Below the pieces are notes generated by a model. It was given only the letters and a program-made list of their open reading frames with translations. It was not told the origin of the DNA and searched no databases. Of a stretch of DNA of 5,673 nucleotides, positions 1 to 5,673 are shown one piece after another. Numbering within the stretch: position 1 is the first letter of the stretch; each line of letters begins with the position of its first letter. The position numbers and the translations under genes are program-made. Location of the stretch: the IMG/VR virus record IMGVR_UViG_2706794682_000006, one strand, 5' to 3'. This DNA comes from a virus (lineage: Duplodnaviria > Heunggongvirae > Uroviricota > Caudoviricetes).

Positions 1-2301
1 GACCGCCATAATGCCGTTGAGGTGAACTGGATTGACCCGGATAACGGCTGGGAGACGGCGACAGAGCTTGTGGAGGACACGCAGGCCATTGCCCGTTATG
101 GTCGTAACGTCACGAAGATGGATGCCTTTGGCTGTACCAGCCGGGGGCAGGCACACCGAGCCGGGCTGTGGCTGATTAAAACGGAGCTGCTGGAAACGCA
201 GACCGTGGACTTCAGCGTGGGTGCTGAAGGGCTTCGCCATGTACCGGGCGATGTCATTGAAATCTGCGATGATGACTATGCCGGTATCAGCACCGGCGGG
301 CGCGTGCTGGCGGTGAACAGCCAGAGCCGGACGCTGACGCTCGACCGTGAAATCACGCTGCCATCCTCCGGTACCACGCTGATAAGCCTGGTTGACGGAA
401 GTGGCAATCCGGTCAGCGTGGAGGTCCAGTCCGTCACCGACGGCGTGAAGGTAAAAGTGAGCCGTGTTCCTGACGGCGTTGCCGGATACAGCGTATGGGG
501 GCTGAAGTTGCCGACGTTGCGCCAGCGCCTGTTCCGCTGTGTGAGTATCCGTGAGAACGATGACGGCACGTATGCCATCACTGCCGTGCAGCATGTACCG
601 GAAAAAGAAGCCATCGTGGATAACGGGGCGCACTTTGACGGCGACCAGAGCGGCACGGTGAATGGTGTCACGCCGCCAGCGGTGCAGCACCTGACTGCCG
701 AAGTCACCGCAGACAGCGGGGAGTATCAGGTACTGGCCCGCTGGGACACACCGAAGGTGGTGAAGGGCGTGAGCTTCCTGCTCCGTCTGACCGTAACAGC
801 GGATGACGGCAGTGAGCGGCTGGTCAGCACGGCCCGGACGACGGAAACCACTTACCGCTTCACACAACTGGCGCTGGGGAACTACAGGCTGACAGTCCGG
901 GCAGTAAATGCGTGGGGGCAGCAGGGCGATCCGGCGTCGGTATCGTTCCGGATTGCCGCACCGGCAGCGCCGTCGCGGATTGAGCTGACGCCGGGCTATT
1001 TTCAGATAACCGCCACGCCGCATCTTGCCGTTTATGACCCGACGGTACAGTTTGAGTTCTGGTTCTCGGAAAAGCGGATTACCGATATCAGGCAGGTTGA
1101 AACCACAGCCCGCTATCTTGGCACGGCGCTGTACTGGATAGCCGCCAGTATCAATATCAAACCGGGCCATGATTATTATTTTTACGTTCGCAGTGTGAAC
1201 ACCGTTGGCAAATCGGCATTCGTGGAGGCTGTTGGTCAGCCGAGTGATGATGCATCCGGCTATCTGGATTTTTTCAAAGGCGAGATAGGGAAAACCCATC
1301 TGGCTCAGGAGCTGTGGACGCAGATTGATAACGGTCAGCTTGCGCCTGACCTGGCTGAAATCAGGACGTCCATTACGGATGTCAGCAATGAAATCACGCA
1401 GACCGTCAATAAGAAACTGGAAGACCAGAGTGCTGCAATTCAGCAGATACAGAAGGTTCAGGTTGATACAAATAATAACCTGAACAGCATGTGGGCTGTG
1501 AAGCTGCAGCAGATGCAGGACGGACGCCTTTATATCGCGGGTATTGGTGCCGGTATTGAGAACACCCCTGACGGCATGCAGAGTCAGGTGCTGCTGGCGG
1601 CGGACAGGATTGCGATGGTTAATCCTGCGAATGGCAACACAAAACCGATGTTTGTTGGTCAGGGCGATCAGATATTCATGAACGACGTGTTCCTGAAACG
1701 CCTGACGGCCCCCACCATTACCAGTGGTGGAAATCCACCGGCATTTTCCCTGACACCGGATGGGCGGCTGACGGCGAAAAATGCCGATATCAGCGGTAAC
1801 GTGAATGCGAACTCCGGGACGCTCAACAACGTCACGATTAACGAGAACTGTCGGGTTCTGGGAAAACTGTCCGCGAACCAGATTGAAGGCGATCTCGTTA
1901 AAACAGTGGGCAAAGCTTTCCCCCGGGACTCCCGTGCACCGGAACGGTGGCCATCAGGGACCATTACCGTCAGGGTTTATGACGATCAGCCGTTTGACCG
2001 GCAGATTGTTATTCCTGCGGTGGCATTCAGCGGCGCTAAACATGAGAGAGAGCATACTGATATTTACTCCTCATGCCGTCTGATAGTGCGGAAAAACGGT
2101 GCTGAAATTTATAACCGTACCGCGCTGGATAATACGCTGATTTACAGTGGCGTTATTGATATGCCTGCCGGTCACGGTCACATGACGCTGGAGTTTTCGG
2201 TGTCAGCATGGCTGGTAAATGACTGGTATCCCACAGCAAGTATCAGCGATTTGCTGGTTGTGGTGATGAAGAAAGCCACCGCAGGCATCAGTATCAGCTG
2301 A
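1..2301 (+). CDS. J: Tail tip / host-specificity protein J (central tail fibre), C-terminal ~766 codons; 5'-partial, the reading frame is open from base 1
   Basis: Frame 1 is open from position 1 to a TGA at 2299-2301; the GTG at 22 chosen by the ORF track is internal, not a real start. The translation has two tandem fibronectin-III-like segments (about 660-1250, e.g. ...[27 protein letters not shown]... and ...[23 protein letters not shown]...), which is typical of lambda-family J proteins. Position immediately upstream of lom and stf matches the lambda order J-lom-stf. Uniform GC-rich coding composition and no internal stops across 2.3 kb. Confidence 0.9.
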
Positions 2302-2318
2302 ATTTTATAACCCATATA

Positions 2319-2347
2319 CGGGCGCCAGAAATGGCGCCTTTTTTATT
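2319..2347 (+). terminator. Rho-independent terminator downstream of J
   Basis: Perfect 6-bp GC stem GGCGCC (2321-2326) / GGCGCC (2333-2338) with 6-nt loop AGAAAT, followed directly by TTTTTTATT (2339-2347). It begins 18 nt after the J stop codon. Confidence 0.75.
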
Positions 2348-2357
2348 GCAGAAAAGC

Positions 2358-2363
2358 GAGAGG
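2358..2363 (+). promoter_or_regulatory. Shine-Dalgarno sequence for lom (GAGAGG), 5 nt upstream of the ATG
   Basis: GAGAGG at 2358-2363, spacer TAATT, ATG at 2369. Confidence 0.7.
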
Positions 2364-2368
2364 TAATT

Positions 2369-2440
2369 ATGCGTAAAGTTTGTGCAGCCATTTTGTCCGC
2401 AGCCATCTGTCTGTCCGTATCCGGTGCGCCTGCATGGGCA
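2369..2440 (+). other. Predicted signal peptide of Lom (24 aa, cleavage after AWA)
   Basis: [24 protein letters not shown] followed by SEHQ; Lys/Arg n-region, hydrophobic h-region, AxA motif at -3/-1. Confidence 0.7.
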
Positions 2441-2968
2441 TCTGAACATCAGTCCACGCTGAGCGCGGGCTATCTTCATGCCTCGACGAACGTTCCCGGC
2501 AGCGATGATCTGAACGGGATTAACGTGAAATACCGTTATGAGTTTACGGACACACTGGGGCTGGTGACGTCATTCAGCTATGCAGGAGACAAGAATCGCC
2601 AGCTTACCCGTTACAGCGATACCCGCTGGCATGAAGATTCCGTGCGTAACCGCTGGTTCAGCGTGATGGCGGGGCCGTCTGTGCGCGTGAATGAATGGTT
2701 CAGCGCGTATGCGATGGCGGGTATGGCTTACAGCCGTGTGTCGACTTTCTCCGGGGATTATCTCCGCGTAACTGACAACAAGGGGAAAACGCACGACGTG
2801 CTGACCGGAAGTGATGACGGTCGCCACAGCAACACGTCTCTGGCGTGGGGAGCTGGCGTGCAGTTTAACCCGACCGAATCCGTGGCCATTGATATTGCTT
2901 ATGAAGGCTCCGGCAGTGGTGACTGGCGCACTGACGGTTTCATCGTGGGTGTCGGTTATAAATTCTGA
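2369..2968 (+). CDS. lom: Lom-like outer membrane protein (Ail/Lom/PagC/Rck/OmpX family 8-stranded beta-barrel); prophage 'moron' / lysogenic-conversion gene
   Basis: 199-aa ORF with a good RBS. The N-terminus [24 protein letters not shown] is a classic Sec signal peptide (basic n-region, hydrophobic core, A-x-A cleavage site). The protein ends in ...[24 protein letters not shown]; a terminal aromatic (Phe) beta-strand is the outer-membrane-barrel signature, and the motifs GINVKYRYE and SVMAGP match what I recall of lambda Lom and Ail-family proteins. It sits between J and stf as in lambda and is bracketed by terminators. Confidence 0.9.
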
Positions 2969-3032: not shown

Positions 3033-5673
3033 ATGGCAGTAAAGATTTCAGGTGTACTGAAAGACGGCACAGGAAAACCGGTACAGAACTGCACAATCCA
3101 GCTGAAAGCAAAACGTAACAGCACCACGGTGGTGGTGAACACGCTGGCCTCAGAAAATCCGGATGAAGCCGGGCGTTACAGCATGGACGTTGAGTACGGG
3201 CAGTACAGCGTTATTCTGTTGGTGGAGGGATTCCCGCCGTCACATGCCGGGACCATCACCGTGTATGAAGATTCCCGACCCGGTACGCTGAATGATTTTC
3301 TCGGTGCCATGACGGAGGATGATGCCCGTCCGGAGGCTCTGCGCCGTTTTGAACTGATGGTGGAAGAGGTGGCGCGTAACGCGTCCGCGGTGGCACAGAA
3401 CACGGCAGCCGCGAAGAAGTCAGCCAGTGATGCCGGCACATCTGCCCGTGAGGCGGCAACCCATGCGACTGATGCTGCAGGCTCAGCGCGTGCAGCCAGC
3501 ACGTCAGCCGGACAGGCCGCGACTTCGGCTCAGGAGGCGTCTTCCAGCGCAGGAACGGCATCAACAAAGGCCACTGAAGCATCAAAAAGTGCTGCCGCTG
3601 CAGAGTCCTCAAAAAGCGCGGCGGCCACCAGTGCCGGTGCGGCGAAAACGTCAGAAACGAATGCTGCAGCGTCACAAAAATCAGCAGCCACTTCTGCATC
3701 CACTGCGACAACGAAAGCGTCAGAAGCCGCCACTTCAGCCAGAGATGCGGCGGCCTCCAAAGAGGCGGCAAAATCATCAGAAACGAACGCCTCCACAAGC
3801 GCCAGCAGTGCAGCCTCCTCGGCAACGGCGGCAGGAAATTCCGTGAAGGCGGCAAAAACGTCCGAGACGAATGCTAAGTCTTCTGAAACGGCAGCGGAAC
3901 AGAGCGCCTCAGCTGCGGCAGACTCTGAGACAGCAGCTGCATCATCGGCCCGTGAGGCGTCCATTAAGGCAGAGGAGGCAGCAGTCAGTGCCACCGCCGC
4001 CGGAAAATCGGCAGAAAGCGCCGCATCATCCGCTTCAACAGCCACAACGAAGGCTGGCGAAGCCACTGAACAGGCCAGCGCAGCAGCGAGGTCTGCTTCC
4101 GCAGCGAAGACATCCGAAACGAACGCGAAAGCGTCGGAAACAAGCGCAGAATCCTCAAAAACGGCTGCCGCATCGTCAGCCAGTTCGGCGGCGTCATCGG
4201 CATCATCGGCGTCTGCTTCAAAAGATGAGGCGACCAGACAAGCGTCAGCAGCGAAGAGCAGCGCCACGACGGCATCCACGAAGGCGACAGAGGCTGCTGG
4301 CAGTGCGACGGCGGCAGCTCAGAGCAAAAGTACGGCGGAATCCGCGGCAACGCGCGCCGAGACAGCAGCTAAACGGGCAGAGGATATTGCATCCGCCGTG
4401 GCGCTTGAGGATGCGAGCACGACGAAAAAGGGGATAGTACAGCTCAGCAGTGCGACCAACAGCACTTCCGAGTCACTGGCGGCAACGCCAAAGGCAGTAA
4501 AAGCAGCCTATGACAATGCAGAGAAACGTCTGCAGAAAGACCAGAACGGTGCTGATATCCCCGACAAGGGCCGCTTCCTGAATAACATTAATGTTTACAG
4601 CAAAGGTGAAGTGGATAAGAAAAAGGGGATGCGAAAATACACTTTCTCTGCTCCTGCAAATGCAGTAAGCGGTAAGTGGTATCCTATAGTCTTTCGCCGA
4701 TCTGGAGGCGGTACCGATGAATTAGCCTCACGAGTTGTGATAACTACTTATTCCTCAGCTGGCGGATACGCCATGAATAATTGTGAATTTAATGGGTTTG
4801 TTATGCCTGGCGGTTGGTCTGATCGCGGTTCATATGCGGCTGGTTTTTTCTCAATATATTCTACTGCTGAGCGAGCTATACACTCGATTATTTCAAGTGT
4901 GAAAGATGACGATTTGTGTAGTGTATTTTACGTTGAAGCCAGAGCATTTCCTATCAAGATATTTGCTGAGGAGGGCTTGAACGTAATTGTTCCAACTACT
5001 GACTATACCGTTGGTCAAGCCACCTATAAGTGGGGGGCCACAGATCCAGTAGCAGAAAGTACAAATACTCAAACCATTCTGGATTTTAAAAATGGACGTG
5101 GTTATTACTGCTCACATCAGTTTGTTTCAAGCCTTTCAGGAAATGCAGCAACAGCAACGAAATTAGCAAGTTCAATAAACATAGGTGGTGTATCCTTTGA
5201 TGGTTCAGCCGATATAGATTTGCCTGGTGTGAATACAAAAGGTAATCAAGACACTACCGGTAATGCAGCGACAGCGACCAAGTTGCAGACAGCATGTACT
5301 ATCAACGGCGTCTCGTTTGATGGTTCTAAAGATATTGAACTTAACCCACGGTCTATAGGCACGATCAACTCCACAACAATGTCTTTTAGTGGTGGTGCTG
5401 GATGGTTCAAGCTGGCAACGGTAACCATGCCGCAGGCGAGTTCTGTTGTTTCAATTACGTTGATTGGTGGGGCTGGATATAACGTCGGTTCACCTCAACA
5501 GGCAGGTATATCTGAACTTGTTTTGCGTGCAGGTAATGGTAATCCGAAGGGGATTACTGGTGCTTTATGGCAGCGCACATCGGCAGGGTTTACAAATTTT
5601 GCCTGGGTCAATACATCTGGTGATACTTACGATATTTACGTTGCAATCGGAAATTATGCGACTGGTGTAAATA
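3033..5673 (+). CDS. stf: Side tail fibre protein (Stf), N-terminal ~880 codons; 3'-partial (no stop before window end). Lambda-Stf-like N-terminal region joined to a divergent distal receptor-binding region
   Basis: ATG at 3033 is the first ATG after an in-frame TGA at 2991-2993 and is preceded by GGGG (3024-3027). Hand translation of frame 0 shows no stop through 5672. The N-terminus MAVKISGVLKDGTGKPVQNCTIQLKAKRNSTTVVVNT...GRYSMDVEYGQYSVIL...TITVYEDS matches my recollection of lambda Stf (orf-401) almost residue for residue, followed by a long Ala/Ser/Thr-rich region and ...KKGIVQLSSATNSTSESLAATPKAVK. The distal part carries two tail-fibre repeat units. It is absent from the ORF track only because that track needs a stop codon. 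Confidence 0.88.
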   Translation, partial: MAVKISGVLKDGTGKPVQNCTIQLKAKRNSTTVVVNTLASENPDEAGRYSMDVEYGQYSVILLVEGFPPSHAGTITVYEDSRPGTLNDFLGAMTEDDARPEALRRFELMVEEVARNASAVAQNTAAAKKSASDAGTSAREAATHATDAAGSARAASTSAGQAATSAQEASSSAGTASTKATEASKSAAAAESSKSAAATSAGAAKTSETNAAASQKSAATSASTATTKASEAATSARDAAASKEAAKSSETNASTSASSAASSATAAGNSVKAAKTSETNAKSSETAAEQSASAAADSETAAASSAREASIKAEEAAVSATAAGKSAESAASSASTATTKAGEATEQASAAARSASAAKTSETNAKASETSAESSKTAAASSASSAASSASSASASKDEATRQASAAKSSATTASTKATEAAGSATAAAQSKSTAESAATRAETAAKRAEDIASAVALEDASTTKKGIVQLSSATNSTSESLAATPKAVKAAYDNAEKRLQKDQNGADIPDKGRFLNNINVYSKGEVDKKKGMRKYTFSAPANAVSGKWYPIVFRRSGGGTDELASRVVITTYSSAGGYAMNNCEFNGFVMPGGWSDRGSYAAGFFSIYSTAERAIHSIISSVKDDDLCSVFYVEARAFPIKIFAEEGLNVIVPTTDYTVGQATYKWGATDPVAESTNTQTILDFKNGRGYYCSHQFVSSLSGNAATATKLASSINIGGVSFDGSADIDLPGVNTKGNQDTTGNAATATKLQTACTINGVSFDGSKDIELNPRSIGTINSTTMSFSGGAGWFKLATVTMPQASSVVSITLIGGAGYNVGSPQQAGISELVLRAGNGNPKGITGALWQRTSAGFTNFAWVNTSGDTYDIYVAIGNYATGVN
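3400..4430 (+). repeat. Low-complexity Ala/Ser/Thr/Lys/Glu-rich coding repeat region inside stf, with imperfect internal DNA repeats
   Basis: Recurrent peptide motifs K-T-S-E-T-N-A (nt 3649-3669, 3855-3875, 4108-4128; related S-S-E-T-N-A at 3775-3792) and S-A-S-T-A-T-T-K-A-(S/G)-E-A (3693-3728 and 4029-4064). The codons are dominated by GCN/TCN/ACN, which creates long stop-free runs in other frames and on the antisense strand. Confidence 0.8.
5139..5342 (+). repeat. Two copies of a phage tail-fibre repeat motif within stf (protein-level tandem repeat, units 40 codons apart)
   Basis: Unit 1 at 5139-5222 is GNAATATKLASSINIGGVSFDGSADIDL; unit 2 at 5259-5342 is GNAATATKLQTACTINGVSFDGSKDIEL. Both are in the stf frame. 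The motif GNAATA(T)KL...(R/C)TINGV.FDGS..I resembles what I recall as the 'phage tail fibre repeat' seen in T4 gp34-type and many enterobacterial prophage tail fibres. Codon usage differs between the two units, so the duplication is not recent. Confidence 0.75.

Follow-up and report, generated by a model that had tools for sequence, protein, structure and literature searches.

Two units of a widespread 40-residue repeat in the side tail fibre gene of a lambda-like prophage

Introduction

Similarity among the fibres of lambda, P1, P2 and the T-even phages has long been known, and the 40-residue repeat described here, two units of which lie in a side tail fibre gene (stf), recurs in several of these systems. 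The closest relatives of this gene are the Stf proteins of E. coli prophages (the lambda Stf family, StfR of the K-12 Rac prophage, and WP_130548467.1 of strain TH9F11), which share with the window (the whole 5,673-nucleotide stretch of DNA analysed) the gene order J-lom-stf-tfa, and with its stf product a PF08400 N-terminus, an Ala/Ser-rich rod, a PF03406 unit, a collar domain, GxHxH boxes and the C-terminus …NIAFNYIVRLA. K-12 StfR differs in having a single, more divergent unit (GNALTATKLQTPRRVSGVEFDGSKDITL) and other middle domains, and O157-type Stf has three PF03406 units in place of the cassette at 4593-5353 and retains no more than half a unit.

The S fibre of P1-like phage-plasmids (for example pEc1077-100; phage phi456 gpS) carries the same block of domain A, unit 1, unit 2 and domain B (Table 1) at 96% DNA identity, and a further terminal-type unit (see below) at the start of its invertible Sv/Sv' segments, but its N-terminal (constant) part is a different one, its arrangement is Cin-invertible and its context is that of a myovirus. 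Near the N-terminus of T-even gp37 (RB14, T6), at aa 74-112, lies one terminal-type unit (GNAATATKLQTPRKINGISFDGSKDITL) that shares 83% identity with unit 2; unlike in the window, there is one copy only, and the remainder is unrelated to the window sequence. In phage L Dec, the C-terminal spike (6E3C residues ~98-134), which provides Dec trimerisation, corresponds to one unit of the terminal type, interrupted by a 7-residue insertion (NAETADKLSTARTITLTGAVTGSASFDGSANVTIE), a variant that also follows a canonical unit in the fibre fragment P0030; Dec differs in being a capsid decoration protein with a single C-terminal unit, and its spike structure comes from models only.

Genome organization

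The gene order in the window is J-lom-stf, matching genomes are annotated alike, and in matching E. coli genomes the gpJ reading frame is annotated as phage tail tip protein J (Table 1). The best whole-window identity of any genome in the collections is 97.9%. The stf gene is a standard, already annotated side tail fibre gene of an E. coli lambda-like prophage, part of ordinary prophage biology, and its PF08400 match scores 239 bits against a cut-off of 26.6. The short minus-strand reading frames at 5086-5238 and 5246-5428 lie within a plus-strand gene that has strong support and were treated as mechanical artefacts, and an Rfam scan found no RNA families in the window.

Table 1. Features of the window, with positions in nucleotides of the analysed stretch
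Feature	Position	Strand	Basis
gpJ tail-tip/host-specificity gene, 3' part	22-2301	+	ORF list; frame comes in from upstream
lom, Ail/Lom family outer-membrane beta-barrel gene	2369-2968	+	199-aa ORF; Ail/Lom annotation in L001 and other matches
stf, side tail fibre gene	3033-5673	+	First 880 of 1156 codons; open frame runs off the window end
Prophage tail fibre N-terminal domain, stf aa 1-134	3033-3434	+	PF08400, E = 1.1e-71
PF03406 'Phage tail fibre repeat', single copy (DASTTKKGIVQLSSATNSTSESLAATPKAVKAAYDNAEKRL)	4416-4538	+	PF03406, E = 2e-22, sub-sequence scan
Low-GC (41-45%) cassette, domain A plus repeat array	4593-5353	+	GC drop, blastn breakpoints
Domain A, ~166 aa	about 4629-5126	+	Within the low-GC cassette
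Repeat unit 1, complete 40-aa internal type (…INIGGVSFDGSADIDLPGVNTKGNQDTT)	5139-5258	+	77.8 bits, HMM positions 1-40; IGG and PGVN
Repeat unit 2, terminal type (…CTINGVSFDGSKDIEL)	5259-5342	+	64.0 bits; ING, without PGVN..GNQ tail
Domain B, start (IGTINSTTMSFSGGAGWFKLATV…)	5354-5673	+	blastn starts, protein comparison

Because the collections lack the window's own genome, what lies downstream was deduced from genomes that match the window exactly over its last 1274 nt. That stretch (4400-5673) is identical in E. coli TH9F11, where the full stf encodes 1156 aa, and is 100% identical to the gene of WP_130548467.1. In these genomes the stf reading frame continues for a further 276 codons into a collar domain and a GxHxH tip region, and is followed directly by a PF02413 tail-fibre assembly gene, tfa (E = 3.5e-45 in TH9F11); the whole block of 3' stf and tfa is present in 22 records. 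In TH9F11 Stf, PF07484 lies at aa 926-973 and PF03335 at aa 1021-1034, both past the window end. Identification of the gene as a side tail fibre in the first-pass annotation is thus borne out, and neither a stop codon nor an unrelated gene immediately follows position 5673 in the identical genomes. The same annotation held that the receptor-binding tip and tfa probably lie just past the window; both do lie downstream, the tip from about 70 codons and tfa from about 830 nt beyond the window end, but another domain of ~150 aa separates the repeats from the collar and tip.

The repeat family and its subtypes

The two peptides on which the first-pass annotation rested are exactly as given: 5139-5222 encodes GNAATATKLASSINIGGVSFDGSADIDL and 5259-5342 encodes GNAATATKLQTACTINGVSFDGSKDIEL, 120 nt (40 codons) apart in the one stf frame. 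They had been read as 28-residue units. The 12 residues that link them, PGVNTKGNQDTT, are conserved too and belong to the repeat, and the true period is therefore a 40-residue head-to-tail unit, complete in unit 1 and without its tail in unit 2, which runs straight into the next domain. The annotation as a whole is largely right but in need of refinement.

The repeat consensus is GNAATATKLxTARTIGGVSFDGSANIxLPGVNxxGNQxTT, with four invariant residues (I15, G17, F20 and G22), all of which are present in both units. A profile, A1, was made from 42 sequences and matches unit 1 with E = 8.5e-26 and unit 2 with E = 1.7e-21, values to be read with the fact that the profile was built partly from both units. 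At E <= 1e-3 the family comprises 17,720 protein clusters with up to 15 units per protein, and the repeat is found in fibres of P1, T6/RB14 (gp37), P2-like, Pseudomonas, Acinetobacter and Shewanella phages and cyanophages. The unit pair is the strongest internal 28-residue match in Stf outside the Ala/Ser-rich region; chance similarity between the units is ruled out by this rank together with the profile scores and the family size. A search for homologues with a 68-residue query returned short fragments only and served for the consensus, not for architecture.

Two forms of the unit can be distinguished. The internal form reads I-G-G-V-x-F-D-G … L-P-G-V-N-x-x-G-N-Q-x-T-T, and the terminal or capping form begins I-N-G-V… and has no PGVN tail. 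In the 148 top representative proteins, 95% of internal units have G at position 16 and 47% of terminal units have N there, and a PGVN tail is carried by 84% of the internal units and 18% of the terminal ones. The window array agrees with these statistics in its 40-codon period, in the IGG and PGVN of unit 1 and in the ING of the tailless unit 2. The two copies are accordingly not mere drifted duplicates but position-specific subtypes kept across the family.

Coverage by protein family databases

The units have no match in Pfam, alone or together, even at E <= 10, contrary to the earlier expectation of a tail-fibre repeat family hit. Scans with Pfam and NCBIfam of the units, of the 351-aa distal part and of the whole protein returned no family for the repeat, and arrays with 10 copies likewise gave no Pfam match above threshold; PHROG tail-fibre families alone cover the units. 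Two Pfam families, PF03406 (Phage_fiber_2) and PF03335 (Phage_fiber), resemble the units in being short trimeric fibre-shaft repeats present in the same stf, but have other sequences and occupy other places, and the PF03406 match is a different motif from the 40-residue units. PF03406 is the alpha-beta unit of T4 gp34/gp12 type, whose structure has been described (PMC5537660). A full-length Pfam scan masked this genuine match, which is visible on a sub-sequence only and was probably hidden by the Ala/Ser-rich region. The 40-residue repeat is thus an abundant one without a Pfam or NCBIfam model, and pipelines and readers tend to call it PF03406 or PF03335. A literature search with the motif as text strings gave nothing relevant.

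Divergence of the two units

Units 1 and 2 are identical at 20 of 28 residues and at 52 of 84 nucleotides, with a longest exact in-register run of 11 nt. Random back-translation of both peptides gives 53.0±3.0 identical nucleotides (P(sim<=obs) = 0.44), and therefore no DNA homology is left beyond what the protein forces. The 20 conserved residues use different codons in 13 cases and the same codon in seven, where independent codon choice predicts 7.0, and the codon differences quoted as examples in the first-pass annotation are correct. Synonymous sites between the units are saturated (pS 0.85, dS undefined) and pN is 0.23, in keeping with the earlier proposal of an old duplication under purifying selection. 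Comparison of the DNA with itself also bore out the predicted absence of a nucleotide repeat, in that the 120-nt spacing is represented only by short pieces (26 nt at 81% and 32 nt at 75%), and other spacings give chance families at least as strong. Between genomes, orthologous units agree at 81-82 of 84 nt, and five other arrays and the three-unit E. coli alleles are as saturated as the pair described here. Judged from these comparisons, units 1 and 2 appear to be ancient duplicates now visible in protein sequence only, a clean case of repetition kept in a protein after the underlying DNA repeat has decayed completely.

Module boundaries

The GC content falls from ~60% to ~42% at the cassette, which is bounded by blastn breakpoints at 4591/4593 and 5354, is common to the S fibre of P1-like phage-plasmids and is missing from O157-type Stf. 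Homology with P1-like S spans 4593-6086. Homology to O157-type Stf begins at 5354, 12 nt past unit 2, and most sampled E. coli matches begin at the same point (query position 762); the domain B module shares 96-97% identity with the Stf of O157:H7 86-24, of SF-166 and of many further prophages. In homologues, domain A is followed by one, two or three units, the array length depending on the allele, and domain B is preceded by 0.5, two or three. The P1-like S and Sv' sequences are DNA-identical to the end of the terminal-type unit and diverge right after it.

The first-pass annotation held that such repeats mark the start of the receptor-proximal distal fibre, and the motif does stand at the beginning of variable distal parts in RB14 gp37 (aa 74-112) and where the Sv/Sv' segments of P1 start. 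The repeat coincides with points of module exchange because many unrelated fibres carry the motif at domain boundaries. The breakpoints at the array edge are a correlation with module exchange and not proof that the repeat promotes it. The internal and terminal signatures, together with the breakpoint right after the terminal unit, mark a natural module boundary that could guide the construction of chimeric fibres and host-range engineering.

Origin and role of the array

We consider it probable that the window carries, in the distal half of a lambda-like Stf, two units of a widespread 40-residue shaft repeat in tandem, and that the units are ancient paralogues. Purifying selection on the protein would hold the two paralogues; their codons are fully randomised, so that no DNA repeat is left. 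Here the array makes up the 3' margin of a cassette of P1 type that is spliced into a Stf of lambda type. Each unit is predicted to fold only in the trimer, giving a short intertwined beta-structured segment that would have the conserved I, V, F and L residues as its core and turn at the invariant glycines. The segment may serve as a node of trimerisation and as a rigid spacer that separates knob-like domains. The finding adds little to known biology.

Two alternatives concern the history of the pair. A comparatively recent local duplication, in which selection against unequal homologous recombination actively pushed the codons of the copies apart, is the strong form of the idea in the first-pass annotation and would fit the brevity of the longest run that the units share. 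Efficient RecA-dependent exchange in E. coli, as Shen & Huang reportedly found in 1986, needs roughly 23-27 bp, and an 11-nt run falls below this, which would leave the pair recombinationally inert. Other family members hold freshly amplified, DNA-identical units (118-119 of 120 nt in a JGI contig, 118 of 120 in a low-coverage ENA contig), so that arrays can amplify and unstable states exist. Codon sharing and nucleotide identity are at random expectation, however, not below it, and selection for codon avoidance is rejected for this reason; moreover, the units belong to subtypes shared with distant phages, so the split between them predates this fibre, and all other arrays tested are equally saturated. 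We therefore regard recent duplication as very improbable. Of the earlier suggestion that synonymous divergence suppresses recombination, the effect is plausible and there is no sign of selection for it. It is somewhat less improbable, though still unlikely, that the pair was assembled by recombination inside the motif, with domain A and the internal unit coming from one fibre and the terminal unit and domain B from another. The fibre genes are visibly mosaic at the array, the number of units next to domains A and B varies, and unit 2 is nearer to the terminal unit of other alleles (26 of 28 aa) than to unit 1. The breakpoint seen, however, is after unit 2 and not between the units, and the unbroken block in P1-like S argues that the pair has been passed on intact among all close relatives; such an assembly would in any case belong to deep history and is compatible with the ancient paralogy preferred here.

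A third alternative, that the repeats are themselves ligand-binding (to carbohydrate, for example) rather than shaft or connector elements, draws on the Dec study, whose authors speculate about carbohydrate binding by the C-terminal spike (PMC6449081). Phages of unrelated hosts, from E. coli through to Prochlorococcus, carry the repeat in extremely conserved form, where a specificity determinant would be expected to vary, and the variable domains flank the repeats on both sides, and we give this reading hardly any credence.

The predicted trimeric fold and spacer role are supported indirectly by Dec. A PDB profile search with the repeat gave two weak, motif-consistent matches, and the profile matches the Dec spike at 6E3C residues 98-132 (E = 1e-3), a weak match of 22 bits that includes the 7-residue insertion. 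The spike is unfolded in monomers, carries nearly all the contacts that stabilise the trimer, and is beta-sheet by CD and in an AlphaFold2 trimer model (PMC11398494; PMC6449081). Among experimental structures of usable resolution there is none of the repeat, the Dec spike being modelled only and PhiM1 gp47 described just as helical bundles, in a paper whose account leaves out the part of gp47 concerned. It is conceivable, although we hold it with some doubt, that the 40-residue unit is an autonomous, portable trimerisation bead, a beta-barrel like the Dec spike, and that its terminal ING variant is a near-universal adaptor by which any distal module could be coupled to any proximal one; if so, it would offer a splice point, recognisable in the sequence, for swaps of receptor-binding modules across lambda-like, P1, P2 and T-even phages and cyanophages.

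Searched against PDB sequences, the 371-aa distal part gave no meaningful match, that to a Qbeta A1 fusion being due to chance. An AlphaFold2 monomer model of aa 530-880, made with a 32-sequence alignment, is too poor to confirm a fold (mean pLDDT 51, pTM 0.38); it contains a weak beta-hairpin at I-x-I-G-G-V-S-F, no more than consistent with a beta-structured repeat.

Gene organization of the window

Gene order and the Stf N-terminus, a PF08400 'prophage tail fibre N-terminal' domain (Pfam scan, E = 1.1e-71), identify the window as the J-lom-stf end of the tail module of a lambda-like prophage. The best whole-window identity to complete E. coli genomes is 97.9%, and several of these, such as strain TH9F11, match the last 1274 nt (4400-5673) at 100%; an Rfam scan of the window returned no RNA family. 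A long Ala/Ser/Thr-rich stretch of stf has high GC content and a strong A-over-T skew, contains internal protein repeats (e.g. aa 273 versus aa 357, 20/28, recurring near 'KTSETNA'), and is overlain by spurious long ORFs, both on the minus strand and in alternative frames.

Coordinates of the features discussed (window positions unless a locus is named; positions beyond 5673 are window-equivalent)
Feature	Coordinates	Strand	Identity	Source
J, tail-tip gene, 3' 759 codons	22-2301	+		ORF list
lom	2369-2968	+		ORF list
stf, side tail fibre gene; long frame starting MAVKISGVLKDG…, 880 codons, no stop before window end	from 3033	+		ORF list
Ala/Ser/Thr-rich stretch (stf aa ~120-460)	~3390-4410			
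Spurious ORF over this stretch (example)	3530-4279	-		
PF03406 unit, DASTTKKGIVQLSSATNSTSESLAATPKAVKAAYD	4416-4538			sub-sequence scan
Domain A (stf aa 533-698)	4629-5126			
Repeat unit 1	5139-5258			
Repeat unit 2	5259-5342			
Domain B (aa 775-880)	5354-5673			
Lambda-type Stf (O157 86-24, SF-166, K-12 StfR)	3033-4513/4591		92-96%	blastn
Fibre S of ~100-kb P1-like phage-plasmids	4593-6086		96%	blastn
O157-type and SF-166 Stf	5354 onward		96-97%	blastn
K-12 StfR	5808 onward		96%	blastn
S and Sv' region compared, invertible fibre locus of plasmid pEc1077-100	3207-6818 and 9037-10557			
Ten-unit array, JGI contig Ga0645785_00532	501-3230			
Two-unit pair, ENA contig	2207-2446			
Prophage end, matching E. 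coli genome locus	11104-11918 (~6503-7317)			

A 40-residue repeat with internal and terminal types

The two-copy peptide repeat described in the first-pass annotation is present, and is a real but ordinary feature of an already-annotated prophage gene. The two similar 28-aa peptides lie 40 codons apart at exactly the positions noted there, share 20/28 residues and 52/84 nucleotides, and form the top internal 28-aa match in Stf when the Ala/Ser-rich rod is left out. Their motif is conserved with different codons, as had been observed, 13 of the 20 conserved residues differing in codon between the copies, and the longest exact in-register DNA run is 11 nt. The predicted absence of the repeat at the DNA level also holds, with self-comparison at 120-nt spacing giving just 26-32-nt fragments of 75-81% identity, not above chance families at other spacings.

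We redefined the repeat from protein fragments found with a 68-aa query. The 12 residues previously taken as a linker are themselves conserved among these fragments, and the true repeat is a 40-residue head-to-tail unit with the consensus GNAATATKLxTARTIGGVSFDGSANIxLPGVNxxGNQxTT, in which I15, G17, F20 and G22 are invariant. Among 148 top representative proteins the modal unit-to-unit spacing is 40 residues, and two types are distinguished: position 16 is G in 95% of internal units, versus N in 47% and G in 25% of terminal units, and the PGVN tail is found in 84% and 18%, respectively. In the window, units 1 (INIGGV…LPGVNTKGNQDTT) and 2 (CTINGV…DIEL, then NPRS…) are typical of the internal and the terminal type, respectively; because the copies match these types, their differences are mostly position-specific and predate the window fibre, rather than reflecting drift alone.

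Age of the duplication and scope for recombination

The interpretation as an old duplication kept by selection is supported. In the unit pair synonymous sites are saturated (Nei-Gojobori pS = 0.85, dS undefined; pN = 0.23), and the 52 identical nucleotides compare with 53.0±3.0 by random back-translation using local-module codon usage (P(sim<=obs) = 0.44). The units have no DNA homology beyond that forced by the protein, which is under purifying selection. Selection for codon divergence itself was considered and rejected, as shared codons at the 20 conserved residues are not in deficit (7 observed; 7.0 expected if codons were drawn independently at the gene's usage) and age alone suffices. Two-unit arrays of cyanophage P-TIM68, coliphage JenK1, Shewanella phage Spp001 and P1-like phi456 are just as saturated, and so are three-unit E. 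coli alleles, where units are 25/28 identical as protein and only 63-65/84 as DNA; same-position units across different genomes are 81-82/84 nt identical.

Efficient RecA-dependent exchange reportedly has a threshold of ~23-27 bp (Shen and Huang, 1986). With a longest shared run of 11 nt the window units therefore offer no substrate for efficient unequal exchange, and the array should be stable. The proposed suppression of recombination by synonymous divergence is a plausible by-product rather than an established adaptation, shared codons being at random expectation. Elsewhere, three units in the 127-kb contig Ga0645785_00532 are identical at 118-119/120 nt, and these near-identical copies, within an array with a super-period of 77 residues, indicate recent tandem amplification. 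Two units in the ENA contig are 118/120 identical, but at 1.1x coverage this may be an assembly artefact.

Distribution and named families

A profile of the 40-residue repeat, with both window units among its input, matches 17,720 clusters at E <= 1e-3 and 5,877 at <= 1e-10 (50% identity representatives), with up to 15 units per protein; yet Pfam and NCBIfam have no model covering it. The motif is present, within a phage collection, in P1, T-even gp37 (T6, RB14) and P2-like fibres, in Pseudomonas, Acinetobacter, Shewanella and Xanthomonas phages, and in cyanophages; its conservation across phages of unrelated hosts is extreme, whereas the flanking domains are variable.

A Pfam tail-fibre-repeat scan had been expected to match the units, but they have no Pfam or NCBIfam match at E <= 10; ten-copy proteins give nothing above the Pfam threshold, and multi-copy arrays only sub-threshold matches to DUF6948 (PF22253). 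As there is no model to match, that check fails on its own terms, and the tail-fibre identity still holds; PHROG tail-fibre families cover the units. The earlier interpretation is largely right, with five refinements: the unit length, the internal and terminal subtypes, the Pfam expectation, which was wrong, the position at a module junction, and the codon divergence, which carries no sign of having been selected.

The 'phage tail fibre repeat' families PF03406 and PF03335 are different motifs elsewhere in stf. PF03406, the counterpart of the alpha-beta repeat whose structure was solved in T4 gp34/gp12 (PMC5537660), matches upstream of domain A (E = 2e-22), but this unit is missing from a scan of the full 880-aa protein, presumably through HMMER composition-bias handling of the adjacent Ala/Ser-rich region, which calls for care when the domains of such fibres are annotated. 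PF03335 (GxHxH box) matches stf aa 1021-1034, past the window end. Domains A and B, ~150-170 aa each, flank the repeats and have no match in Pfam or by PDB sequence search; NCBI labels some homologues 'pyocin knob domain-containing', and the two domains may be secondary binding knobs.

Predicted fold and function

A search with the repeat profile hits Dec, the decoration protein of phage L, at its C-terminal spike (6E3C residues 98-132, E = 1e-3), which is a variant of the repeat with a 7-residue insertion; the same variant adjoins a canonical unit in the fibre fragment P0030. The Dec spike is unfolded in monomers, holds nearly all trimer-stabilising contacts, is needed for capsid binding, and is antiparallel beta with three strands per chain by CD and an AlphaFold2 trimer model (PMC11398494; PMC6449081). 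We infer that each unit would form a short beta segment intertwined in the trimer, serving to nucleate or lock trimerisation and to keep the knob-like domains apart; unit count would tune length, with the terminal variant capping the array and forming the transition to the domain that follows. An AF2 monomer model including domains A and B has a mean pLDDT of 51, too poor for use in fold assignment.

Module junctions and the region beyond the window

Pairwise blastn divides stf into segments of different affinity, in which a P1-type myovirus-plasmid fibre module is spliced into a lambda-type Stf. GC content drops abruptly near 4560-4600 from ~60% to ~42% (41-45% over ~4560-5400), and this low-GC stretch coincides with the P1-like cassette (4593-5353 and beyond). 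O157-type Stf lacks the cassette at 4593-5353 and instead has three PF03406 units and a half-unit (ARKVNGKALSSDITLTPKDIGT…) ahead of the same domain B. A spread sample of 5,596 matching records has most of its better hits starting exactly at window-equivalent 5354, 12 nt past unit 2. The number of units after domain A in close homologues is one, two or three, with two between domains A and B in the window and P1-like S versus three in homologous proteins P0059, P0061 and P0065. In the P1-like plasmid pEc1077-100, the alternative variable segments S and Sv' share ~144 near-identical nt (LSTANTWSARQTF… to …GVRFDGSADI) and split exactly at the end of the terminal-type unit. The breakpoint, the array variation and this split make the terminal unit repeatedly the last conserved element ahead of a variable module.

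The tip and tfa gene, expected downstream, are present in TH9F11, with tfa ~830 nt past the window end and an extra ~150-aa domain between repeats and tip. Stf runs 276 codons further, through the rest of domain B, a Collar domain (PF07484, aa 926-973) and GxHxH boxes to a C-terminus of …NIAFNYIVRLA; a 193-aa PF02413 tail-fibre assembly protein follows with overlapping stop and start, and then chromosomal potB. The complete 3' stf and assembly-gene block is found in 22 records. In the matching E. coli locus the prophage ends directly after tfa, beside potB of the potABCD operon, and has neither an invertase nor a second fibre cassette, unlike Rac (pinR) and the P1-like plasmids.
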